64,000 nucleotides of DNA from contig LJNG01000002.1 of assembly GCA_001302985.1 (NCBI GenBank), positions 7,164 through 71,163 on the forward strand, in the 5' to 3' direction. Within the stretch, counting starts at the first letter, position 1; each line of letters begins with the position of its first letter. This DNA is from Parcubacteria bacterium DG_74_3. Lineage in GTDB: Bacteria > Patescibacteriota > Minisyncoccia > Minisyncoccales > DG-74-3. Under the pieces are notes generated by a model. The model saw only the letters and a program-made list of their open reading frames with translations, was not told where the DNA came from and searched no databases. Positions 10,254 to 56,437 of the stretch are shown in pieces. The translations under genes and the position numbers were made by a program.

Positions 10254-10438
10254 AATTATTAAGATTTACACCAGGTCGCCGCTAGACCTTCTTGGTCCGA
10301 CATGGTTTTATCATTATTAATATATCACAAAAACCTGAGAAAAATTCTCGGGCAAGCGAGCTCCGGTAGTCGGTCTCGAACCTGTGGTTTAGAGGAAAAA
10401 TTGGAGGTTTTTGAGGGTTTCCCATAACGCGTCTCGGT

Positions 10439-10505
10439 CCTCCTTCGCCCTTCCGTAGCCCCGCAATGGCGGGGCGGAGGAGGGCTTCGTCAAGACTACG
10501 GAAGG
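10439..10505. other. GC-rich nested-helix / pseudoknot-capable structured element
   Basis: Perfect 10-bp helix CCTTCCGTAG (10449-10458) / CTACGGAAGG (10496-10505). It encloses the hairpin CCCCGC-aatg-GCGGGG (10459-10474). An alternative 11-bp pairing CCTCCTTCGCC / GGCGGAGGAGG also exists. Strand of function unknown. Confidence 0.35.
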
Positions 10506-10544
10506 ATAAATCGGAGCTATTTTAAGCTAAACTTAGAAAGTATA

Positions 10545-14736: not shown

Positions 14737-15774
14737 ATGAAAATAGCTCAAGTTGCACCTCTTTGGATTCCGGTTCCTCCTTATACTTACGGGGGTACCG
14801 AGCTTGTTATTTCCTGGCTCTCTGACGAATTGGTAAAAAGAGGACACCAGGTCACTCTTTTTGCGACAGGAGATTCAAAAACCGAAGCAAATTTAGTTCC
14901 CATCTGGCCAAAATCTCTATGGAGATCCAACTTAAACGCCCCTCATGCTGTTTTTGCCTTACTTTATAAAACTCTTTCTGATCTAGAGGGTCAGTTTGAT
15001 ATTATCCATGACCATTGTGAATTCTATACCTCTCCTTTCAGTAAATTTTTTAAGACACCGATTGTATCCACCCTACACCATCCGATGTACGAGGAAATGA
15101 TAATTCTCTTCAAAAAATTCCCTAAAATTAACTATGTGGCAATTTCAAAATCTCAGAGAAGAAGCGCTCCAGGGGTAAATTTTGTCAAAACCATCTATCA
15201 TGGTTTACCAACCGAAAAGTATCCCTTTAATCCAGAGCCTAAAGATTATCTTTTTTGGCTTTCAAAAATATCACCAGAAAAAGGAATAGCCGAGGCCATT
15301 GAGATAGCTCAAAGAGCAGGAGAAAAACTGATTATTTCTGGGGTCATACTAAAAGAGCATCAAGATTTTTTTGAATATAGAATAAAACCAATGATTGATG
15401 GGAAACAAATTCAGTTTGTGGGCGCTGCTGATTTTGAAAAAAAGGTTGAACTTTTCAAAAACGCCAAAGCCTTTTTATATCCCATTAAGAGACCCGAGCC
15501 CTTTGGTCTTGTTGTTATTGAGTCAATGGCCTGTGGTACACCGGTTCTTGCCTACAAAGCCGGAGCAATGCCCGAGCTTATAAAACATGGAAAAACAGGC
15601 TTTTTGCTAAATTCTCAAGAAGAAATGGTGGGGGCCTTAAAAAAGATTAATGAAATTAAAAGAATAGACTGTCATAGGCATATTTTAAGAAAATTTAGTC
15701 TTCAGAAAACGGTTAATAAATATGAAGCCCTTTATCATAAAATATTAAAAAATGAAAAAAAGAAAAAAACTTAA
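14737..15774 (+). CDS. Glycosyltransferase family 4 (GT-B fold), paralog 1 of 3
   Basis: N-terminal IAQVAPLWIPVPPYTYGGTE. C-terminal EPFGLVVIESMACGTPVLAYKAGAMPELIKHGKTGF. Confidence 0.75.
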   Translation: MKIAQVAPLWIPVPPYTYGGTELVISWLSDELVKRGHQVTLFATGDSKTEANLVPIWPKSLWRSNLNAPHAVFALLYKTLSDLEGQFDIIHDHCEFYTSPFSKFFKTPIVSTLHHPMYEEMIILFKKFPKINYVAISKSQRRSAPGVNFVKTIYHGLPTEKYPFNPEPKDYLFWLSKISPEKGIAEAIEIAQRAGEKLIISGVILKEHQDFFEYRIKPMIDGKQIQFVGAADFEKKVELFKNAKAFLYPIKRPEPFGLVVIESMACGTPVLAYKAGAMPELIKHGKTGFLLNSQEEMVGALKKINEIKRIDCHRHILRKFSLQKTVNKYEALYHKILKNEKKKKT

Positions 15775-16855
15775 AATTGCTCAAATTGCTCCTTTATGGA
15801 TTCCTGTGCCTCCAAAAAAATATGGGGGAATCGAAAGAATTGTTCACTATTTAACCGAGGAGCTAGTGATGAGGGGGCACGAGGTAACTTTGTTTGCTTC
15901 TGGCAATTCAAAAACTAAAGCTAAACTGGTATCTGTTTATCACAAGGGGCTCTTGGAGGGCAAAATTCCCTGGACAGACCCTTTCTGGAATTTAGAAAAT
16001 TTATCTCGCGCTTTCAGGGAAGCAGACCACTTTGATGTCATTCATTCTCATCTAGACCTCTGGACCTTATTTTTCCAAGAATTAACTAAGACACCCGTCT
16101 TACACACCTTTCACAACCCCCTTTATACTGCCTCTATTACTGACCCCAAAAGAATCCCTACTCGCCTCAAAATGTTTAATCTTCACAGGAAAACCAGCTA
16201 CGGGTGTTTTATTTCAAAATCTCAAAGAAAGCTTTGTCCGGTGAAGTTTCCCAGAAATTGGGTTGTTTATAATGGGATTGATTTATCGCTGTATAAATTT
16301 AACCCCAAACCAAAAGATTATTTTGTCTGGATAGCCAGAGTCGATCCCTATAAAGGAATTGAAAATGCAATTTTGGCAGCTAAAAAAGCCCAGGTCAAAT
16401 TACTTCTAGCCGGTCGTCTTGATCCCGGAAGAAAAGAATATTTTAGAAAGAAAATTAAACCCCACCTGTCTAATAAAATTAAATTCTTGGGCGAACTCTC
16501 CCAAGAAAAGTTAGCTAACTTTTATGGAAATGCCAGGGCCTGCCTTTACCCAATTGAATGGCAAGAACCTTTTGGTTTAATTATGGCCGAAGCTATGGCC
16601 TGTGGAACACCGGTAATAGCTTTTGACCAGGGTTCGGTTTCTGAGGTTATTAAAAATGGGAAAACAGGATTTGTTGTGCCATTTTTGGACAAAAAAGGCA
16701 AAAGAAACATTAAGGGGCTTGTCGGAGCCATCAGAAAAATTGACCGGATTAAAAGAGAAGATTGTAGAAACTGGGTAGAGAAACAATTTAGTTATCAAAG
16801 AATGACCGATGATTACGAAAAAATTTATTACAAAATTCTAACTTCCAAATTATGA
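15752..16855 (+). CDS. Glycosyltransferase family 4, paralog 2 of 3
   Basis: IAQIAPLWIPVPPKKYGGIE ... EPFGLIMAEAMACGTPVIAFDQGSVSEVIKNGKTGF. Start overlaps the end of paralog 1. Confidence 0.75.
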   Translation: MKKRKKLKIAQIAPLWIPVPPKKYGGIERIVHYLTEELVMRGHEVTLFASGNSKTKAKLVSVYHKGLLEGKIPWTDPFWNLENLSRAFREADHFDVIHSHLDLWTLFFQELTKTPVLHTFHNPLYTASITDPKRIPTRLKMFNLHRKTSYGCFISKSQRKLCPVKFPRNWVVYNGIDLSLYKFNPKPKDYFVWIARVDPYKGIENAILAAKKAQVKLLLAGRLDPGRKEYFRKKIKPHLSNKIKFLGELSQEKLANFYGNARACLYPIEWQEPFGLIMAEAMACGTPVIAFDQGSVSEVIKNGKTGFVVPFLDKKGKRNIKGLVGAIRKIDRIKREDCRNWVEKQFSYQRMTDDYEKIYYKILTSKL

Positions 16856-17952
16856 GCAAAAAAATGAAAATTGGTATGATGGTGACGGGTCATTTTACCA
16901 TTCCTCCTCCTCAAGGGATAATTTACGCTCCCATGTTTATTGCCGGGGCTGTGGCTGAGGGTTTAACTAAAAAGGGACATGAAATTTACTTTTTTGCCCC
17001 TCAGGGATCAGAACTAAGGGTAACCAAAATGATTTCTGGCAATTTAGAACCTCTTCACGGTTTTTCTGGAAAAAAAGATTTAAAAATTATTTCTAGTCCT
17101 CAGGTCGGAGGAGGAGAAAAGTGTAAAATTTTTAATTTGTGGGACCAATACCTTATTTCTTTAATCTATCAAGAAGCAATAAAGCAAAAGTTGGATATTA
17201 TCCATATTCATCCTGCAGACAGAGCTCTACCTTTTGGTTTGGCTTTCAAAAAAATCCCGATTGTTTATACGCTTCACGATCCGGTATATCACTGGAGAAA
17301 AGAAATATTTCAACTCTTTCAGAGTAAAAACCAATATTTCGTTTCCATATCAAATGCCCAGCGAAAGCCAGCCCCCAATCTAAACTGGATAGCAACAATT
17401 TACAATGGCTTAGATTTAAAGCTTTTTCCTTTTTCGGCTCAACCTAAAAATCAGTGTCTTTTCCTTGGTCGGCTTTTACCAACTAAGGGGGTGGCAGAAG
17501 CCGTAGTAGCTGCTCGAAAAGCAAAACAACCACTAATCATTGCTGGCACTCCCAATACCGGGGATTATTGGGAAAGAAAAATAAAACCCTTCCTGAGCAA
17601 AAATATAAGATATATCGGAAATGTTCCCTATGAAAAAACTTACCAATATTATGGCCAAGCTAAGGTTTTACTCTGTCCCATTCAATGGGAAGAGCCCTTT
17701 GGCTTAACTTTTATTGAAGCTATGGCCTGTGGAACACCGGTAATAGCTTTTGATAGGGGGTCAGCCAGTGAGGTAATAAAAGACGGAAAAACTGGCTTTG
17801 TTATAAAAACAATTGAAGAAATGATTAAAGCCATTAAGAAAGTTGACCAGATTAAAAGAAAGGAGTGCAGGAGCTGGGTGGAGAAAAAATTTAGTTACCA
17901 GAGAATGATAGATGATTATGAGAGGATCTTTCTAAGGATTCTGAAGAAATGA
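16852..17952 (+). CDS. Glycosyltransferase family 4, paralog 3 of 3
   Basis: EPFGLTFIEAMACGTPVIAFDRGSASEVIKDGKTGF. Shared C-terminal block KxECRxWVEKxFSYQRMxDDYE. Confidence 0.75.
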   Translation: MSKKMKIGMMVTGHFTIPPPQGIIYAPMFIAGAVAEGLTKKGHEIYFFAPQGSELRVTKMISGNLEPLHGFSGKKDLKIISSPQVGGGEKCKIFNLWDQYLISLIYQEAIKQKLDIIHIHPADRALPFGLAFKKIPIVYTLHDPVYHWRKEIFQLFQSKNQYFVSISNAQRKPAPNLNWIATIYNGLDLKLFPFSAQPKNQCLFLGRLLPTKGVAEAVVAARKAKQPLIIAGTPNTGDYWERKIKPFLSKNIRYIGNVPYEKTYQYYGQAKVLLCPIQWEEPFGLTFIEAMACGTPVIAFDRGSASEVIKDGKTGFVIKTIEEMIKAIKKVDQIKRKECRSWVEKKFSYQRMIDDYERIFLRILKK

Positions 17953-38588: not shown

Positions 38589-39590
38589 TTAAGCTTTTTC
38601 TAAAATAGCTTTTTTGATTCTTTCAGCCACTTCTGGGTTCTCTCTCAAGAAACCCATAGAAGCTTCCATGCCCTGACCAAGTTTTTTGGTTTCGAATTGT
38701 AACCAAGAGCCCAACCTTTTAACAAGACCGGCTTTCATTCCGGTATTTAAGAGGTCAGCCCATTTTGAAATTCCCTCATTATAATAAATGTCAAAATCAG
38801 CAATCTTAAAGGGAGGGGCAACTTTATTTTTAACTATTTTAGCCTTGTGTCTTCCACCAATTATCTCATCTCCTCTCTTAATTTGGGCAATTCTCCTTAA
38901 ATCAATTCTCACCGAGGCGTAAAATTTAAGAGCCAGCCCACCAGGGGTTGTTTCGGGATTTCCAAAACGCAGCCCGATTTTCATTCTGGTCTGGTTTAAA
39001 AAGATGACAGCTGTCTTCGTTTTCGAAACAATTCCTGACAATTTTCTTAGAGCCTGACTCATTAAGCGGGCCTGGAGACCAATTTGAAATTCTCCCATCT
39101 CTCCGTCAATTTCGGCTTTGGGCACTAAAGCTGCTACCGAATCAATCACAATAATATCAACCTGACCTGAGCTAATTAGGGTTTCAACAATCTGAAGAGC
39201 CTGCTCTCCTGAATCTGGTTGAGAAATTAGTAGGTCATCAATATTGACTCCGATTTTTTTTGCATAGTCCGGGTCCATGGCGTGTTCGGCATCAACAAAG
39301 GCTCCAACCCCACCTCTTTTTTGAGCTTCGGCTAAAATATGAAGAGCTAGAGTGGTTTTTCCTGAAGCCTCTGGACCATAAATCTCAATAACTCTTCCTC
39401 GAGGAATTCCCCCCACACCCAGGGCCAAATCAAGGGCCAGAGATCCCGTTGAAATAACATCCACATTAACCGCTCTCACCTCTTTCAGTTTCATAATAGC
39501 TCCTTCACCAAATCGCTGTTTAATTTCCCTCACCGCCTCTTCTAAATTCTCTTTTCCGGTTGAAGAGTTTTTCTTCTTTTTTGTAGCCAT
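38589..39590 (-). CDS. recA: Recombinase RecA
   Basis: GPEASGKTT Walker A and [21 protein letters not shown]. Confidence 0.95.
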
Positions 39591-39624: not shown

Positions 39625-41757
39625 TCAAATAAATTCTTGCGGCTCATCTTCGCCTCCGTAAACTTCTCTCGGTTTCGCTCCCTGAGGCGGTCCAACTATG
39701 CCTCTTTTTTCTAAAATATCTAATAATCTGGCTGCTCGGGCATAACCAATTTTTAGTTTTCTTTGGAGAAAAGAGGCTGAAGCTCGTCTGGTTTCAATCA
39801 CCAATTTTTTAGTCTCTGGATAAAGGGGGTCTTCTGCGAGCTCGAAAGAGGAGAGCTGGTCGAGCCCCAAACCCTCTACTTCTGATTTTTCCAGAGAATC
39901 CCGGAGGTCTTGATATAAACCATTTTCTAAAACCATATCTTGGTTGTTTTCAACTATCCAGTTGGTTACTTTTTTTACCTCCTTGTCTGAAACATAGGGT
40001 CCTTGGATTCTTTTTGGCTTTACCGTCTGAGCAGAGAGAAAAAGAAGATCACCCAACCCTAAAAGTTTTTCTGCTCCGGCCATATCTAAAACCGTTCTTG
40101 AATCAATCTGGGAAGCTACCTGAAAGCTAACTCGAGAGGTAATATTGGCTTTAATAAGACCGGTAATTACTTCCACTGATGGCCTTTGAGTAGCCACCAC
40201 CAAATGGATTCCGACAGCTCGTGCCAGCTGGGCCAACCTAACAATACCTGTTTCTATCTCCCTTCCCTTGGCTACTATTAAATCAGCCAACTCATCAATA
40301 ATTAACACAATATAGGACATAAACTCTCCTCCTTCTTTTAAAACTTTTTCATTATAACCTGCAATATCTCTAACCTTTTCCATTGCCAGCACATTAAACC
40401 TTCTGCCCATTTCGGAAATTAACCAATTCAGACAGTGAACTGTTTTTGTGGCATCGTAAATAACGGGGGATAAAAGGTGAGGAAGTTTACCATAGGCCGT
40501 AAACTCTACCCTCTTTGGGTCAACCAAGATTAGTCTCAAAAATTCTGGGCTATTTTGATATAAAAAAGATAAAATTAGGTTATTGAGAAAAATAGTTTTT
40601 CCGGTTCCGGTAGCTCCGGCCACCAAAAGGTGAGGCATTTTGGCTAAATCAGCATAGTCTGGTTTACCAGAAACTCCTCTGCCCAGAGCAAAAATTAAAT
40701 TAGAAGAAGAGTTCTGAAGTTCGGGCTCAGAGAGCAAACTTTCCAGTCTAACTCTAGCTCTTATTTTATTAGGAACCTCAATTCCGACCAAAGAGCGACC
40801 TGGAATGGGAGCTTCGATTCTAATGGGATGAGAAGCTAAGGCTAGGGCAAGATTATTAGAAAGAGCGGTTATCTTGGATAGTTTTATTCCTTCGGCAGGC
40901 TTTAAGGCGTATTGGGTAACAGTAGGCCCAATATTTATTTCTGCCATCTCAACTGGAATACCAAAATTTTCCAGGGTTTTTTTAATAATTACCGCATTGG
41001 TTCTGGTATTACCTGCTGAAGGAGTCTCTTTTTCTTGAGCCAAAAGATCCAGAGGCGGAAGTTTATATTTAGAGGTTGAAGGTTTATAAGAAACTTTATT
41101 AATCTTAAGCTCTAAAGGAGGAGCTTTGGGTTTGAATTCTGGGACTTTTTCTGAGGGCAGGGGAGGAACCTCTTTAACCTCAAATTTGGGAACGCGTTTT
41201 GCTCTACCAAATACCCTAGTCAGCACCGATGTTTTCTCTTCTTTTTCTCTATCTAATGAAGGAGAGGGTACTAAAAGTTGCCAAAAAATTAAAATACCGA
41301 CAATAACCAGGGTGAAAAATATAATTTTAGTTACCAAAAGACCAAAAAGCCCAAGAAGGGGTAAAGAAAAAATATATCCAAGAAATCCTCCTTTTTGCGG
41401 GTCTTGATTTAATAAAGAAAAAATGCCTGAAATGCCCAGGGTTAAAATTAGAATCGCAAAAATCACAGGGCCCAAAAACTTTCTCTGTTGGGTATTTAAA
41501 AATACTGCTCCGGCCAGAGCTAAAAATAAAGGAAGCGCGTAAATGGTGCTTCCAATTAACAAAAGGGATAGTTTCATAAATTTTTCTCCTACCATCCCTG
41601 CTTTTCCAAAAAAAGAAAGAATAACGATAATGGCTATCAAAAAAGTCATTACTCCGCCAATTAATTTTTTTACTCTTTGGGGTAATATAAAAAGGTTGGA
41701 TTTTTTCGTTTTTTGGTTTGTTTTTTTTGATTTTCGATTCCGTTTTTTTCTGGCCAT
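39625..41757 (-). CDS. ftsK: DNA translocase FtsK/SpoIIIE
   Basis: N-terminal TM domain. Motor domain GATGTGKT. C-terminal gamma winged-helix (LQRKLKIGYARAARLLDILE). Confidence 0.9.
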   Translation of the reverse strand: MARKKRNRKSKKTNQKTKKSNLFILPQRVKKLIGGVMTFLIAIIVILSFFGKAGMVGEKFMKLSLLLIGSTIYALPLFLALAGAVFLNTQQRKFLGPVIFAILILTLGISGIFSLLNQDPQKGGFLGYIFSLPLLGLFGLLVTKIIFFTLVIVGILIFWQLLVPSPSLDREKEEKTSVLTRVFGRAKRVPKFEVKEVPPLPSEKVPEFKPKAPPLELKINKVSYKPSTSKYKLPPLDLLAQEKETPSAGNTRTNAVIIKKTLENFGIPVEMAEINIGPTVTQYALKPAEGIKLSKITALSNNLALALASHPIRIEAPIPGRSLVGIEVPNKIRARVRLESLLSEPELQNSSSNLIFALGRGVSGKPDYADLAKMPHLLVAGATGTGKTIFLNNLILSFLYQNSPEFLRLILVDPKRVEFTAYGKLPHLLSPVIYDATKTVHCLNWLISEMGRRFNVLAMEKVRDIAGYNEKVLKEGGEFMSYIVLIIDELADLIVAKGREIETGIVRLAQLARAVGIHLVVATQRPSVEVITGLIKANITSRVSFQVASQIDSRTVLDMAGAEKLLGLGDLLFLSAQTVKPKRIQGPYVSDKEVKKVTNWIVENNQDMVLENGLYQDLRDSLEKSEVEGLGLDQLSSFELAEDPLYPETKKLVIETRRASASFLQRKLKIGYARAARLLDILEKRGIVGPPQGAKPREVYGGEDEPQEFI

Positions 41758-41835
41758 ACCTTTTTATTTTAACATAAATTAGACTGAAAAATCAAAAGCG
41801 CAAAGCCAGATTTTAATCTTTTTACTTTACGCTAA

Positions 41836-41945
41836 TCCTTTGAAGCAATTTCCCGAGCAATATAACATCTTGTCTCTCTAAGACAATCTGTCTGAAGATT
41901 TATTACTTTTCAAAGCCGGTTCCGGCGGGTATAAGTTTACCGATT
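41836..41945. repeat. Direct repeat copy 1 (~110 bp, ~93% identical to 42124..42233); carries a duplicate of the last 13 rpoC codons plus the terminator hairpin
   Basis: Aligned by eye. Its reverse complement still encodes [13 protein letters not shown]-stop, with one synonymous change (GGT to GGC). Contains hairpin TTGTCTC-tct-GAGACAA. Confidence 0.7.
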
Positions 41946-42123
41946 TATAATAAATGGAGTAAATTTGGGAGTAGTTATCGGGAGAAAAGCTTTATAATAA
42001 AGCATTAAGTTAAAGCGAGGGAAGTGCCGAAAAGGACATCCGGAGCGAGCGGCCAAGGTTTCGCCCAGAGGGACGAAGAGCGAGCGAGGACTAAGTAAAA
42101 ATTCTCGGTGGGAATTTTTGCGG

Positions 42124-42233
42124 TCCTTTGAGGTAGCTTCCCAAGCAATATAACATCTTGTCTCTCTGAGACAATTTGTCTGAAGATTTATTACTTTTCA
42201 AAACCGGTTCCGGCGGGTATAAGTTTACCGATT
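42124..42233. repeat. Direct repeat copy 2, overlapping the authentic rpoC 3' end and its terminator-like hairpin
   Basis: Same ~110-bp unit, 288 bp from copy 1. The 42191..42233 part is the real end of rpoC. Confidence 0.7.
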
Positions 42234-45200
42234 ATGACGTTTTCTTTTAAACCAAGGAGTTTGTCTTCCTTTCCCTCAAGAGAGGCCTTAATTAACACTC
42301 GCGAGGTTTCCTGGAAAGAAGCAGCAGATAAAAAGCTATCTGTGGTAAGGGCTACCCGAGAAATACCCAGCAAAACCGAAGAGATTTTAATTGGTTGCTT
42401 TTTTCCTTTTTTAAGCTGGGCATTTTCTTTTAAAAATCTGGCTTTTTCAATAATCTGACCAGGGGTCAAAAGACTATCTCCCGGGTCTTTGATTCTTAAT
42501 CGAGAAAACATCTGACGAACAATAACCTCAATGTGTTTGTCGTGAATAATAGCTCCCTGGGAAACATAGATTTTTTGAATTTCGTTAATAACGTAACGCC
42601 AGACAGCTTCTTTACCGGCCAATTTAAATAGCTTCTTTAAATCTACACTTCCTTCAAAAAGTTGTTGACCCTTAATGACTTTTTGACCTTGTTGAACCCA
42701 AATTGCCCTTTGAAGGGGGGCTTTATATTCGAGTACCGGAAGAGATTTTTTGGTTCTCTTAGGATTTTCCTTGGACTGGGTCTGGGATTGAATTCTGATT
42801 ATTCTGTCGGGAGTAATTTCCAATATTTTTCCTTCTACCGTAGAAACTTCAGCCTTTCCTTTAGGAGTTCTGGCCTCAAAAATCTCTTGAACTCTTGGAA
42901 GACCAAAAGTAATATCGCCGCCTCCAGCTACTCCGCCCGTATGAAAAGTTCTCATCGTCAACTGGGTTCCTGGTTCTCCAATTGCCTGGGCAGCTACAAT
43001 TCCCACGGCCTCTCCTAATCTAACAAGTTCATTGTTTCCCAGGTCCCAACCATAACATTTTTGACAAACCCCTCTAACTGTTTTACAGCTCATGGGAGAA
43101 CGAATCTTCACTTCTTCAATGTTGGCTCCAACAATTTCCTCTCCTTTTTCCCAATCAATAATTTCATCTTTTTTAACAATAGTTTTTCCACCGGGAATCT
43201 TAATATCTTTAAGAACAGATTTTCCTACAATTTTAAAAAGGAAATTTTGGCCGATGCCGTTCGCGTCTTTTCTTAAAACCGTAATACCCTCCCTATCTTT
43301 ACAGTCTTTTTCTGTCACCACTACTTCGTGAGCGACATCAACAAGTCTTCGGGTTAAGTAGCCTGCTGTTGAAGTTCTCAGGGCAGTGTCTGCGGTTCCT
43401 TTCCGGGCTCCGTGGGTAGAAATAAAATACTCCAAAACATCAAAACCTTCTTTGTAAGAGCTTTTCACGGGCAACTCAATAATTTGGCCTGCAGGATTAA
43501 TAACTAACCCCTTCATTCCAGTCATTTGAACGGGCTGAGTCCAAGAACCACGGGCACCTGAATCAACAATTTGGAAAACAGACCCTGAGGGGGGTAGGGT
43601 TTTATGAACTTCTTTTTCAATCTCTGTTTTGGCTCGCTGCCAAATTTCAATAATCTTACTAGTTCTCTCTTCTTTAGAAAGCAAACCTTTCCTAAAGTGC
43701 TCTTTAATCTGTCCTACCTCTTTTTCAGCTTTGGCAATTATTCGCGGTTTTTCTTTTGGAACAATTAAATCGTCCATTCCCCAGGAAACACCGGAAAGAG
43801 TGGAATAATCAAATCCTAAGGTTTTCATTTTATCTAAAGTTGCTACGACTATTTCTCTCTCGTATTTTCTAACAATTTGACCCATAAGTTTTTCAATTTT
43901 TTTAGAATTGAAATGCTCGTTCTGAAAAGAAAAATCAGGTGGTAGGGCTTCATTAAACAAAATCCTTCCTAAAGAAGTTTCAAGATAATTTTTTTCTATT
44001 TTAACCCGAATTTTAGTCCTGAGATCTAAATAGCCCAACTCATATACCAGGATAGCCTCTTCTGGTGAGCTAAAAAACTTACCCTCGCCCCTCCCTCCTT
44101 CAATAATTTTAGTCAACCAATACAATCCCAAAACAATATCCTGACTTGGAATATCAAGGGGTATACCAGTAGCCGGTTTCAGAAGGTTTTGGGCGACTAA
44201 CATTATCTCTTCAGCTTCTTTTTGGGCTTCGCTGGTCAGGGGTAAGTGAACTGCCATCTGGTCTCCATCAAAATCAGCATTAAAAGCCTTACAAACCAAG
44301 GGATGAATTTTAATTGCCTCTCCTTCAATTAAAATCGGGTAGAAAGCCTGAATCCCCAATCTATGAAGGGTTGGGGCTCTATTTATTATAACCAATTTTT
44401 CTTTGACCACTTCTTCTAAATTGGCCCAAACCTCGTCGGTTTCTGTCTCAATTAAGCGGGATGCTCCTCTTACGTTATAGGCTAATTCTTTGTCTAAAAT
44501 TTTCTTAATAACAAAGGGTTTAAAAAGCTCGAGAGCCATTTTTTTAGGTATACCCACCTGGTTCAATTTGAGTTCAGGCCCTACGACAATTACTGATCGA
44601 CCAGAATAATCAACTCTCTTTCCTAAAAGATTTTGACGGAACCTACCCCTTTTCCCCTTTAGCATATCTGCTAACGACCTCAAAAGACGACGGCCGCCGG
44701 TGGTGGCTCGAGTTGTTGTACCGGTTCGCATTTCATTATCAATTAAAGCATCTACTGCTTCTTGCAACATTCTTTTTTCATTTCGAATAATAACCTCGGG
44801 AGCTGCAATTTCTAATAAGTATTTTAAGCGATTATTTCTGTTAATAACTCGACGGTAAAGATCATTAAGGTCAGAAGAGGCATACCTCCCTCCGTCTAAG
44901 CGAACGATCGGCCTAAGGTCGGGAGGTAAAATAGGAATAACAGTTAAAAACATCCATTCTGGCCTTACTCCAGCTGCCTCCATTCCCTGAAAAAGTCTGA
45001 GCCTTCTAAGAATTTTCTTTCGTCTTTGGCGGGAGGTGGTTTTTAATATCTGTCTCTTTGATTTGGAAATTTCTTTACTAAGCTCAATTTTCTCAAAAAT
45101 TTTTCTCATGGTCTCAGCGCCGGTACCAGCCGTAAACACTTCTCCATATTTTAGAGAAAAGTCTTGATAATCAATTTCAGACAGAATCTTTAGGGGCTCT

Positions 45201-45778
45201 AGACTCAAAAGTTCTTCTCGAGCTCTATCTCGCGCCATCTTTAATTCTCCCAAAGCTTTTTTTAATTTCTTTTTTTGGTCCTTCAATTTGGCTTTTTGGG
45301 CTTTAACTTTCTGTCGATATTCTTTCTCAATCTCTTCAAGAGTATTCTTCTTAGCCTCCTGATTAACATCGGTCACGATATAGGCAATAAAATAAACCAC
45401 CCTCTCTAACTGAAAGCCGGGCACGTCCAAAACCATTCCCATTCTGGAGGGTACTCCTCGTAAGAACCAAATATGAGAAACCGGAGTGGCTAATTTAATA
45501 TGCCCCATTCTTTCCCTTCTTACCGAAGCCTTGGTTATTTCTACTCCACACCTATCGCAAACTATCCCTTTGTAGCGAATTCCTTTATATTTACCACAAT
45601 AACATTTATAGTCTGACTCTGGTCCAAAAATTTTTTGACAAAAGAGACCGTCTTTTTCTGCCCTATGGGTTCGGTAATTAATGGTTTCGGGCTTAATAAC
45701 CTCGCCATGAGACCAGTTCAAAATATCCTCAGGCGAGGCCAAACGAATCCGTATTGATTCTAATTCTTGAACTCTCAT
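42191..45778 (-). CDS. rpoC: DNA-directed RNA polymerase subunit beta-prime
   Basis: [15 protein letters not shown] and full-length conserved blocks; 1195 aa. Confidence 0.97.
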
Positions 45779-45779
45779 T

Positions 45780-48700
45780 TTATTTAGTTTCTTCTTCTTT
45801 AGGTTTTTCTCTTATTTCTACGTCAATACCAAGAGACTTTAATTCTTTCACCAACAAATTAAAGGAGGCGGGTAAATTAGGTGGTTTTATTTTCTCGCCT
45901 TTTAAAATAGACTCATAAGTAGCTGCTCGGCCAGCAATATCATCTGATTTTATAGTTAACATTTCCTGAAGGGTATGAGCTGCTCCATAACCCTCAAGAG
46001 CCCAGACCTCCATTTCTCCGAATCTCTGACCTCCAAATTGAGATTTTCCTCCCAAGGGTTGTTGGGTAATTAAAGAATAAGGTCCGATAGCTCTCATATG
46101 AATTTTATCTTCCACCATATGAATTAGTTTCATCATATAAATAAAACCCACCGTAATTTTTTCTTTAAAAGACGAACCTGTTCTGCCGTCGTATAAAATT
46201 ACTTTTCCTTCCTCTGGCAGCCCGGCTGCTCGCAGTTCAGCCTTAATGTCTTCTTCGGTGGCTCCGGAAAGAGCCGGTGATACAGCATAATATCCCTGTT
46301 CCTTAGCTGCCCAACCAAGATGGGTCTCTAAAATTTGACCAAGGTTCATCCTAGAAGCCACGCTTAGGGGATTTAAAATTATATCGACAGGGGTACCATC
46401 TGCCATAAAAGGCATTTCCTCCTGGGGTAAAATCATAGAAATTACTCCTTTATTTCCATGGCGGCCAGATAATTTGTCGCCAACTTGAATTTTTCTAAGT
46501 TCAGCAACCTCTACTTCAATCCTTTTTATAACGCCGGGGTCTAATTTATGACCCATTTCCCGAGAAAAAATCTTTACTCCCACCACCCTACCTCGTTTAC
46601 CATGCTCCATTAAAAGAGAGGTGTCTTTTACCTCCTTAGCTTTCTCGCCAAAAATTGCCCTCAGCAATCTTTCTTCCGCGGTGAGTTCCTCTTTTCCTTT
46701 GGGAGAAATTTTACCAACCAGAATATCGTTTGGCCCAACCTCAGCTCCTATTCTAATAATGCCTTCTTCATCTAAATTTTTTAGTTTTTCTTCAGAAACA
46801 TTGGGTATATCGGGGGTGGTTACTTCAGGCCCCAATTTTGTTTCTCTAACATCGCAACCAAAGCTTTCAATATAAATTGAGGTGTAAATATCATCTTTTA
46901 CCAATCTCTCAGAAATAATAATTGCATCTTCAAAATTCCCTCCCCTCCAGGACATAAAAGCTACCAAAATATTTTTTCCTAAGGCTAAGTGACCTCGGTC
47001 GATTGCTCCTCCATCGGCTAAAACATCTCCTTTTTTCACTTTCTGACCTTTTTGTACTAAGGGTCGTTGATGAAAACAGGTATACTGATTGGTTCTAATA
47101 AAATTGCCGAGGCTATAAATTTTCTCTTTCTTTGAGTGTTTAACCTTAATCTGATTTGCATCTACCTCTACCACTTTTCCATCTTCCTCCGCTACCACCA
47201 CTTGTCCTGAATCTTTTGCCACTCTTTCTTCTATCCCGGTCATGACCAAGGGGGCTTCGGGATTAATTAAGGGAACGGCTTGTCTTTGCATATTAGAGCC
47301 CATCAGAGCTCTGTTGGCATCATCGTTTTGTAAAAAAGGAATGCAGGAGGTAGCAATGGAAATTGGTTGCTCTGGAGAAACATCAATAAAATCAATTTTA
47401 TTTCTATCAACCAGCCCGGGTTCGCCTTTTAATCGGGCTTCCACCTGGCGAGATACAATCTTGCCTCTCTCACCAAGAGGAATAGAGCCTGAAGCAATGT
47501 TATATTTTTCTTCTTCGTAAGCATTAAGGTATTGAAGTTCTGGGGTCAATTTTCCTTCTTTGACCTTAAAGTAGGGAGTTTCCAAAAAACCATAAGGATT
47601 AATTTTGGCATAGCTCGCTAAATGACCAACCAAACCAATGTTGGGCCCCTCGGGAGTTTGAATGGGGCAAATTCTTCCATAGTGAGAGGGCTGAACATCT
47701 CTTACTTCAAAACCTGCTCTTTCTCTAGTTAACCCTCCTGGTCCAGTGGCTGATATTCTCCTTTTGTGTTCTAATTCGGCTAAAGGATTTTCATTATCCA
47801 TAAACTGGGAAAGCTGGGAAGAGGTGAAAAACTGTTTAACTATAGCCATAAAGGGTCGGGGATTAATGATTTGGATGGGAGTAGCGGTATAAATATCTAA
47901 AGTAGACATCCTGTCTTTAATTATCCTCTCCATTCTCATCAAACCCACCCTTAATCTATTTTTTAAAAGTTCAGATAGGGTTCTTAATCTTCGATTACCT
48001 AAATGGTCAATTTGATCGGGTTTTCCTTCGGGATCGTTGTTAAGTCTAATTATCTCTCTTATAACCTCAATTACATCATTGGGCTTCAATACTCTATCTT
48101 CCGGGGTAATTTCTTTCTTTTGAGAAAGACCCGGTAGACGCTGCCACATTCTCCATCTGCCTACCTCTGAAAGATCATATCTCCGAAAGTTAAAAAACAT
48201 ACTTTCGATTAATTCTCGAGCTGTATCTGTGGTAGCCCGATCCCCTGGTCTTAATCTCTGGTAAATCTCAATAAGAGCTTCCGTCTGATTGTGACTGGGG
48301 TCTCGTTTAAGGGTTTCTTCGATATATTTTATTTCGCCTTTATCAGCGTCTTTAAAAAAATTTTTAATTTGCCCATCGCCATCAACCCCGAGAGCGCGCA
48401 AAAGAGTAGTAGCTGAAACCTTTCTTCTTCTATTGATTTTCACTCCGATAACTCCCGATGGGTCGGTTTCAAACTCTAACCAAGCACCTCGATTGGGAAC
48501 AATTTTAGAGCCAAAATATTGTTTGCCTCTTATTTGCTGAGCAGTAAAGAAAGCTCCAGGCGAACGAATTATCTGAGAAATCACCACCCTTTCTACCCCA
48601 TTAACAATAAAAGTTCCCCTTTCGGTCATTAGGGGAAAACTAGTTAAAAAAACCTCCTGTTCTTTAATTTCTTTGGTTTTAAGATTAACCAGCTTTACTC

Positions 48701-48968
48701 GCACCCTAAGGGGAACTTCATAGGAATCATTATTTAATTTTGCCTCAAGGTCTGACTTGTAATTTGGTTCACCCAGTTGGTAATCCAAAAACCAGAGCTC
48801 TAATTTCTTCCCGGTATAATCTCTAATGGGAGAAACTTCTTGGAAAAGCTCTTTTAAATCCTTTTTCCAAAACCCCTTCCAGCTTTCTGTCTGCAAGGTT
48901 AATAAATAGGGTAAGGAGAGGAGTGGTTTGGTTTTACCAAAATGTTTAACCTTTATTTTCTGCATCAT
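45780..48968 (-). CDS. rpoB: DNA-directed RNA polymerase subunit beta
   Basis: Full-length RpoB homolog. First ATG at 48968 (MMQKIKV); the ORF track begins at a TTG at 48977. Confidence 0.97.
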
Positions 48969-49087
48969 TAAAGCCAAAAAAGACCCTAAATTATGGTTAG
49001 GGTAAAATTCTTTTATTTAGTTTTCCGATGGAAAAATTTCCAGAGAGTTCTCAAGAAAAGAGACAGTATAGATTTATATATTTTTCC

Positions 49088-55300: not shown

Positions 55301-55777
55301 TTAGAAGCAAACGCAATCTGCAGCACCGTAGGCGGGTAACGCAGTTACTTCTCTGGTCCCTGCTTCTGAAGCAGCAAAGTAGTCTCCATTTTCAAGGTCA
55401 GCATAGACACAGAAAAAAGTACCATCAGTACAACCCGTGCCATGTCCGGCACCATTATTTAACCACTTATAAGGGTTATCGGAACCCTGCGGGTCATTAG
55501 TAGCTGGGAAATATACTACAGGAGGAGTAGCTTTGTTTGTAATCGCTGGTATCCCATCTTGAGCAGCAGCTGTAAAATATACCTCGTCATCGCTCATTAC
55601 CATTTCCTGAGCAGTAATTGCCTGTCTTAAATCAGCCTGACGCCGAGCATCTCGAGCTCTCGATCTGGCGCCCCCCAAAGAAACCAAAACAATTGAAGCC
55701 AACATTCCAATAATGGCAATTACCACCAGCAACTCAATCAAGGTAAAACCTCTTTTCCCCTTAATTAAAAATTCCAT
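55301..55777 (-). CDS. pilA: Type IV pilin (major pilin candidate)
   Basis: Leader MEFLIKGKR then [21 protein letters not shown]-terminal Cys pair. Confidence 0.8.
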
Positions 55778-55909
55778 AAGTATAAATTGTCCTTTATTGA
55801 TTTACTAAAATCGACCTTTTATTATTGTAAATTTGCTTATTCAGAACTCAGGTTAATTATATACCTCTAAATTATTCTTTTCAATCTCTTTTTCCACATC
55901 TTAAACTTT

Positions 55910-56437
55910 CTACCAACAACACTTACCTCCGCTTCCTGGCTCTATATCTAATTTTATAGCACCTTTTTCTGAACCTGCAAACCACCAATTTTTTCCTCCG
56001 GTTTTAGACTCAAGAATGGCATAAATGCAGTAGTGTCCTTCGTTACAATAAGTAGTAAAATAAGCACCTGGACTATTGTCTCTCCAATGATACTTTCCTT
56101 CCTTGGGGTCTCTGGGAACCGGATCTAAATATCTTCCATCTCCTGGAATCTCACAATTCGGCGGATTTTGACAGGGAATCCTGTGGGGTGTTTCTGCGCC
56201 CTGAAAATATCTTTCTATGTCTGAAAACTCCATTTCCATGGCTAAAACAATTTGACGGATATCAGCTTCCCTTCTGGCATCCCGAGCCTTTGCTCTTGCT
56301 TCTCCTAAAGAAACCAAAACCATTGTTGAGAGGGTCCCGATAATGGTAATTACAACCAAAAGCTCAATTAAAGTAAAGGCTGTTTTCTTTCTGCTTTTCT
56401 GCCAATCGTTCTGAAAAAGATTTTTAAAATTTCTCAT
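55910..56437 (-). CDS. Type IV pilin paralog with long leader and Ala at the -1 position
   Basis: [34 protein letters not shown]. Several Cys in the C-terminal domain. Confidence 0.7.
   Translation of the reverse strand: MRNFKNLFQNDWQKSRKKTAFTLIELLVVITIIGTLSTMVLVSLGEARAKARDARREADIRQIVLAMEMEFSDIERYFQGAETPHRIPCQNPPNCEIPGDGRYLDPVPRDPKEGKYHWRDNSPGAYFTTYCNEGHYCIYAILESKTGGKNWWFAGSEKGAIKLDIEPGSGGKCCW

Follow-up and report, generated by a model that had tools for sequence, protein, structure and literature searches.

The spacer between rpoC and ftsK in Parcubacteria bacterium DG_74_3 carries a 288-bp insertion, lineage-specific and fixed, that is composed of a segment of orphan DNA (insert B) and a second copy of a 110-nt sequence (repeat A) that includes the 3' end of rpoC. 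We tentatively favor, at somewhat less than even confidence, the reading that recombination once integrated DNA at the 3' end of rpoC and that the structure is its decaying scar, nearly all of the incoming DNA having been deleted. The insertion is most likely a functionless relic, neither a recognizable RNA gene nor a live mobile element, and its sole likely effect is a longer rpoC 3' untranslated region or ftsK leader that contains a duplicate hairpin and a duplicate promoter-like site. The importance of the structure beyond annotation and natural history is small, as it is an ordinary rearrangement in an unusual place: the end of a core gene in a reduced CPR genome took an insertion undamaged. 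It is also a clean case of a displaced pseudo-3' end, which gene callers should neither extend nor annotate.

Throughout the text we use "the window" for the whole 64-kb stretch of DNA that was analyzed, and all positions are those of the window unless a locus is named. The copy of the repeat that holds the end of rpoC is called copy 2 (proximal), and the copy on the ftsK side of B is called copy 1 (distal). The coordinates of the genes, repeats and smaller features are collected in Table 1.

The rpoC-ftsK locus and its direct repeat

The repeats lie among the genes rpoB, rpoC, ftsK, recA and ssb, and the spacer between rpoC and ftsK measures 433 nt in the window. The FtsK protein encoded there has 100% identity with its counterpart in "Parcubacteria bacterium DG_74_3"; a match to FtsK_4TM in the same gene falls under Pfam's curated cut-off (20.3 versus 23.1 bits). 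A repeat search and a MAFFT alignment define two copies of 110 nt that are identical at 102 positions (93%), with a start-to-start spacing of 288 nt. All eight mismatches are transitions, both C/T and G/A; one of them is a synonymous difference in the coding part and the other seven lie past the stop codon. Position, length, number of mismatches and spacing are as a preliminary description of this DNA had given them. In the 64-kb window this is the sole long, high-identity non-coding repeat: the two other repeat families of at least 110 nt are gene paralogues that are 62-74% identical, and a 29-nt core of the repeat is present solely in copies 1 and 2, where shuffled sequence leads one to expect none at all.

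As the preliminary description had it, copy 2 holds the authentic last 13 codons of rpoC, which is borne out by the Pfam match and the translation, and copy 1 codes for the same 13 residues with one synonymous change (GGC/GGT). An in-frame TAA stands directly upstream of these codons in copy 1, which hence cannot be translated and is a pseudo-end. The hairpin that had been ascribed to both copies is perfect in copy 2, whereas one base of the stem is changed in copy 1; with this change the stem still has a G-U pair in minus-strand RNA, and on the plus strand it has a C-A mismatch. The TTGTC arm in each copy can pair either with an upstream GACAA or with the downstream GAGACAA, and the resulting alternative hairpins (42154-42182 and 41866-41894) overlap the -35-like hexamer of the promoter-like site. 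These alternative hairpins lie in a 41-nt piece that the nearest relatives lack.

Table 1. Features of the rpoC-ftsK region, in positions of the window
Feature	Positions	Strand	Description and basis
recA	38589-39590	minus	Pfam
ftsK	39625-41757	minus	DNA translocase, 710 aa; Pfam FtsK_alpha, FtsK_SpoIIIE, FtsK_gamma
Remnant of the ancestral rpoC-ftsK spacer	41758-41835	minus	Contiguous with copy 1; aligns to the L087 and L093 spacers
Conserved ftsK promoter-like site	41795-41766	minus	TTGATT-18-(TG)TAAAAT; promoter scan
Copy 1 (distal)	41836-41945	minus	Untranslated pseudo-3' end of rpoC
Promoter-like site in copy 1	41886-41859	minus	Identical to that of copy 2; promoter scan
Hairpin in copy 1	41870-41886	minus	One changed stem base (TTGTCTT)
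Codons in copy 1	41944-41906	minus	13 codons; stop 41905-41903; upstream in-frame TAA 41947-41945
Insert B	41946-42123	none	178 nt of orphan DNA; unique in ~83 kb of genome; relatives lack it
AT-rich palindrome in B	41986-42006		AAAGCTTTAT-A-ATAAAGCATT; plus strand includes TATAAT
GC- and purine-rich core of B	~42012-42128		GC about 0.57 versus 0.37 in the window
9-mer in the B core, two occurrences	42043-42051, 42078-42086		GAGCGAGCG; 35-nt spacing; unique to B in the window
Long imperfect hairpin in the B core	42086-42128		GGAC..AAAAATTC-N7-GAATTTTT..GTCC
Copy 2 (proximal)	42124-42233	minus	Last 13 codons of the genuine rpoC, its stop codon and 67 nt of 3' flank
Promoter-like site in copy 2	42174-42147	minus	TTGTCT-16-TG-TATATT; overlaps the hairpin; promoter scan
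Hairpin in copy 2	42158-42174	minus	TTGTCTC-AGA-GAGACAA; 7-bp stem, perfect
rpoC stop codon	42193-42191	minus	TAA, second TAA directly after; C-terminal translation
rpoC	42191-45778	minus	RNA polymerase beta' subunit, 1195 aa; Pfam Rpb1 domains 1-5
rpoB	45780-48977	minus	Pfam

Other samples and relatives

Exact-protein look-up yielded five full-length contigs, from four samples other than that of the window, that have the 433-nt spacer with both copies and B (ENA ERZ27275891 and ERZ27275859; JGI 3300027888 and 3300028823). These five spanning contigs are 99.7-99.8% identical to the window, both copies and B included. A sixth contig, L082 (JGI 3300027893), covers the spacer in part and ends 14 nt short of copy 1; the site is filled in all six contigs seen. 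The organism is present as well in JGI sample 3300028917, and the source of DG_74_3 is the White Oak River. Because the same structure stands in five contigs from other samples, it is not the assembly artifact that had been considered as a possibility when the repeat was first described.

Relatives were sought by a scan of species-representative genomes and by two protein searches, and the databases searched contain none that is closer than 82% (RpoC) or 75% (FtsK) identity. The adjacency of rpoC and ftsK is kept in seven relatives, with recA downstream in four of the seven. The spacer measures 106 nt both in L087 (RpoC 82% identical) and in L093 (81%), 11 nt in L094 (78%), 132 nt in L095 (76%), 19 nt in L088 and L089, and roughly 70-80 nt, as estimated from alignment coordinates, in the GTDB loci L001-L003. 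Each of these loci has just one rpoC end and lacks the insert, hence the duplicated arrangement is derived. A second segment coding for GKLIPAGTG occurs in none of the 92 loci outside this species. The single end without an insert, which had been raised as a possible ancestral state, was thus seen in all of the relatives recovered, and the contrary pattern, a conserved insert shared by relatives, was seen in none.

In alignments, the L093 and L087 spacers first match the 3' part of the repeat (CTCGGGAAGCTGCCTCAAAGGATTAG) and next the DNA beyond copy 1, as far as TGTGTTAAAAT, the promoter-like sequence of ftsK, and the ATG. Copy 1 and the DNA downstream of it are colinear with these two spacers at a score that is reached by 0-2 of 300-500 shuffles; B gives no alignment with them, its score being reached by 90-125 of 300-500 shuffles. 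Judged from these alignments, the two junctions from rpoC to copy 2 and from copy 1 to ftsK are ancestral, and the new DNA is B together with one copy of the repeat.

The differences between the copies can in part be given a direction. Both copies contain a 41-nt hairpin-bearing piece that L087 and L093 lack, and this piece hence predates the duplication. In the 3' part of the repeat, the outgroups L093 and L087 polarize four to five differences, and at each of these one copy carries a derived change from G:C to A:T and the other the ancestral base. Such derived changes occur in both copies, and the synonymous site is ambiguous. The complementary arm of the hairpin polarizes one further difference, again from G:C to A:T. 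This pattern indicates that the copies were at first identical, that they consist of resident sequence and that they have decayed since. As every difference is a transition and most go from G:C to A:T, we also considered a repeat-targeted hypermutation of the RIP kind and rejected it: there are eight sites in an AT-biased genome, and the pattern is within ordinary neutral decay.

Properties of insert B

The whole of 41946-42123 had been described as GC-richer than its surroundings. This holds for its core at ~42012-42128, where GC reaches 0.52-0.59 and ranks in the top 0.6% of 90-nt windows, and does not hold for 41946-42011, the part nearest copy 1, which is AT-rich, as is the genome elsewhere. 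The palindrome in B reads on the minus strand as a hairpin (GCUUUAU-U-AUAAAGC) followed by UUUUCU, which is weakly terminator-like and was not called by the terminator scan. B had also been described as non-coding, and we agree: its ORFs (50, 46, 29 and 26 aa) have no significant Pfam match, no PHROG match and no phage match by tblastn, the sole Pfam match being KGG at E 0.09, below the cut-off.

Rfam 15 gives no match in 41946-42123 at E ≤ 10, a scan of the whole window at the gathering score shows none at or near the insert, an Rfam scan of the loci of 13 relatives finds nothing at or near the position of the insert, and a scan for tRNA and tmRNA finds none near B. Folded with its flanks, B has z-scores of -1.2 and -1.8 relative to shuffles; the core has +0.5 and 0.0, or -1.6 and -0.8 when the terminal hairpin is included. 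The fold of B is no more stable than that of shuffled sequence, compared with z = -4.3 for a GC-rich island of the window (10330-10540) that served as a control. B shows no sign of a protein or of a stable RNA product. A resemblance to SRP RNA that was noticed by eye (CCGGAGCGAGCGGCCAAGG) was rejected, there being neither an Rfam match nor the helix-8 pairing.

A proposed integration and deletion at the end of rpoC

In the course of events that we tentatively prefer, an ancestral layout rpoC-A-spacer-ftsK would have given rise to the present rpoC-A2-B-A1-spacer-ftsK, where A comprises the last 40 nt of rpoC and 70 nt of its 3' flank and the 178 nt of B would have come from elsewhere. A Campbell-type single crossover (site-specific or homologous) of the chromosome with a circular DNA bearing a copy of A would put A on both sides of the incoming DNA while rpoC stays intact. 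A later loss of nearly all of the incoming DNA would leave B, and the two copies would afterwards have drifted apart by transitions, mostly from G:C to A:T where they can be polarized. Direct repeats that flank foreign DNA, together with a restored gene and a pseudo-end, are the geometry of a single crossover with a circle, and it is from this geometry that we infer a scar.

The integration reading is weakened by the missing recombinase and parent element. A circle of 288 bp cannot be autonomous, so that the model needs a second event, a deletion that spared both repeats. Moreover, a purine-skewed, GC-rich core with a 9-mer repeat, kept in every strain sampled, is unusual for junk DNA. The preliminary description had likened the arrangement to the attL/attR scars of an integrated element: the likeness stands for the derived insertion, the target duplication and the geometry, and falls short for the recombinase and the element.

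The search for a parent element or a source of B covered the locus, the genome around it and several collections. No recombinase or other mobile-element gene lies between or beside the repeats, and a second copy of B is absent from the window and 19 kb of flanks on the same contig (~83 kb in total). Phage and plasmid collections have no match to B by DNA (blastn) or by protein, and pattern scans of IMG/VR for B and for the repeat returned no match. The 99 fetched loci contain no insert-like or attP-like sequence elsewhere, and in none of the relatives was an rpoC-targeting element seen. The metagenome collection evidently does not hold this organism, since it did not return the JGI contigs that bear the pattern, and its empty scans are not counted as negatives. 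As ~83 kb contain no source of B, a simple tandem duplication followed by internal deletion is excluded within ~51 kb on one side and ~31 kb on the other. Tandem duplication was rejected on two further grounds: Tandem Repeats Finder gave an empty result, and B is unlike the spacer that follows copy 1.

In E. coli, prophage e14 and phage 21 integrate at the 3' end of icd; they are elements of many kilobases that carry an integrase and are found in many strains. The rpoC site is like theirs in its direct repeat (~100-165 bp), in having one functional gene end and one displaced pseudo-3' end, and in that the copies differ by few, mostly synonymous substitutions which leave the protein unchanged. 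Unlike these systems, it has 178 bp between the repeats, no recombinase and no free or other copy known, and its copies at the polarized sites look like resident sequence and not like an imported variant. CIMEs are cis-mobilizable, degraded islands flanked by att sites that derive from integrative conjugative elements, for example at fda in Streptococcus thermophilus. Like the rpoC site, they lie at the 3' end of a housekeeping gene and have attL/attR-type repeats around DNA without integration genes. CIMEs, however, are kilobases long, are related to identifiable integrative conjugative elements in sister strains and have identical att cores, whereas the rpoC site has no known parent element and its repeats have decayed to 93% identity. 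Should a parent element be found, rpoC would be an integration target in Patescibacteria, whose integrative elements are poorly known.

The template and variable repeat (TR/VR) pairs of diversity-generating retroelements, which are common in CPR bacteria, were considered as well. The likeness consists in a direct repeat of ~100 nt, of which one copy lies at a gene's 3' end and its partner a short way downstream. Unlike such pairs, the rpoC repeat has eight transitions of both kinds, extends 67 nt past the stop codon and leaves the peptide unchanged, and rpoC is not plausible as a target of diversification. We rejected this candidate, since the mismatches are not adenine-specific and lie mostly outside the coding region.

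A possible accident of repair or transformation

The reading that we rank second, and judge somewhat unlikely, is that the structure arose by an accident of repair or transformation in which no integrating element took part and which never had any function. The accident may have taken either of two routes. In the first, a linear fragment anchored in the rpoC end would have been joined illegitimately at its other end; such homology-facilitated illegitimate recombination is an established route for the insertion of foreign DNA beside a homologous anchor (PMC3240628). In the second, template switching or break repair would have doubled a 110-nt stretch and picked up 178 nt of filler.

Genes of an element are absent, and an accident explains the missing element as well as integration does. 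Both copies look resident and ancestral at the polarized sites, and not like a diverged attP, and B is an orphan in all of the searches described above. By eye and in the MAFFT alignment, the first ~25 nt of B look like part of the ancestral terminator hairpin seen in L093 and L087, namely its 3' half, so that the duplicated unit may once have exceeded 110 nt; the resemblance is not significant, however, as 90-125 of 300-500 shuffles are as good, and we rejected the homology. A filler of 178 nt with GC about 0.57 and no source in ~83 kb would be hard to obtain by local template switching, and the clean geometry of flanking direct repeats and a restored gene is the exact product of a single crossover with a circle. 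The same geometry bears on the first route: homology-facilitated illegitimate recombination likewise sets foreign DNA beside a homologous anchor and may duplicate resident sequence (PMC3240628), but its products are usually irregular, whereas the rpoC site has symmetric direct repeats and nothing in it points to a donor.

A possible functional RNA or mobilizable element

We consider it unlikely that B is a species-specific functional RNA for which the duplication supplied the expression signals. In one version a minus-strand small RNA would extend from the copy 2 promoter-like site to the AT-rich hairpin and UUUUCU at ~41990-42004; in another, a plus-strand transcript would be antisense to the end of rpoC. 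In GC content the core of B falls among the tRNA-bearing islands of the window (0.54-0.67) and, as noted, in the top 0.6% of windows, each copy has a promoter-like site on the minus strand and B contains hairpins, and the changed hairpin of copy 1 keeps its pairing solely as minus-strand RNA. B is also retained with one SNP across all of the strains sampled, but since these strains are 99.97-99.99% identical overall its retention is uninformative on selection. No Rfam family matches at E ≤ 10, the core folds no better than shuffles, and B is present in no relative, hence it shows neither covariation nor conservation. The idea of tandem terminators flanking a small RNA gene, which the preliminary description had offered as its second choice, is not supported: the Rfam search at E ≤ 10 is empty, the z-scores run from 0 to -1.8, and B is not conserved outside the species.

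It is very improbable that B is a still-mobilizable miniature element (attL-B-attR), comparable to a CIME, that is moved by an integrase acting in trans, with the GAGCGAGCG repeats as arm-type recombinase sites. The geometry fits this proposal, as does the internal 9-mer repeat at 35-nt spacing that is unique to B in the window. The variation among strains would also fit an ongoing exchange. The sampled strains (loci L081-L086) are 99.97-99.99% identical over 8-11 kb, and four of their seven SNP sites fall inside the 400-nt rpoC-ftsK spacer (41834, 42086, 42143 and 42203); at three of these (42203, 42143 and 41834) the variant base is the base of the other copy. In L082 copy 2 is a mosaic: at two of the eight positions where the copies differ, it has the base of copy 1. 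This mosaic could be due to gene conversion or to the assembler hopping between the copies, and gene conversion, relaxed constraint and assembly cross-talk are all possible causes of the concentration of SNPs in the spacer.

To our knowledge, B has no cognate integrase or parent element, and neither a second site nor a second copy was found in ~83 kb. The copies differ at 8 of 110 positions and have no long identical core near the junctions with B, and the apparent conversions in L082 are patchy and lie in a contig that breaks 14 nt before copy 1, so that graph-hopping in the assembly explains them equally well. Taken jointly, a miniature non-autonomous element that still recombines at the rpoC 3' end through GAGCGAGCG arm sites and a newborn small RNA are quite improbable. 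If the reading as a miniature element were true, B would be the first such element that targets the rpoC 3' end in a CPR bacterium. Whatever its origin, the spacer varies among near-clonal strains and is usable as a strain marker.

A collapsed or mis-joined repeat is scarcely credible, for although L082 ends just before copy 1 and has a mosaic copy 2, the window and the five full-length contigs, from four other samples and two repositories, agree on the same 433-nt structure, and a collapse cannot yield copies that differ at eight positions.

Other observations

In the JGI contig L085, from the same species, ~50 nt are missing inside rpoC at about 2715 (window 43044-43094), with two ORFs of 898 and 271 aa in place of one; the gap probably reflects either a fault of assembly or a defective variant. 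Among more distant CPR relatives, long rpoC-ftsK spacers of about 500 nt also occur in L010 (5280-5470, Doudnabacteria), where there are GC-rich, repeated hairpins of the CCCCGTTAGA type, and in L005 (3180-3700, Staskawiczbacteria), where an apparent small ORF lies between terminator-like hairpins; both spacers are unlike B and have no Rfam match at the gathering score.

The two other repeat families of the window are gene duplications unrelated to the rpoC repeat. At 15453-17802 long direct repeats lie within three adjacent ORFs (345, 367 and 366 aa; 62-74% identity), and at 55631-56387 two adjacent pilin-like genes with an N_methyl domain are 71% identical. On the same contig, ~2 kb past the left edge of the window, there is a very large ORF of 2445 aa (L096 13320-20654). 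The island at 10330-10540 that served as a folding control is a GC-rich (up to 0.64) intergenic segment between two minus-strand ORFs. Its plus strand has a very stable predicted fold, with an MFE of -86 kcal/mol and z = -4.28; none of 200 shuffles did as well, and the closing stem is GAGCUCCGG...CCGGAGCU. The island is unrelated to B and has no Rfam match at E ≤ 0.1, and its predicted fold makes it a candidate for an unannotated structured RNA.
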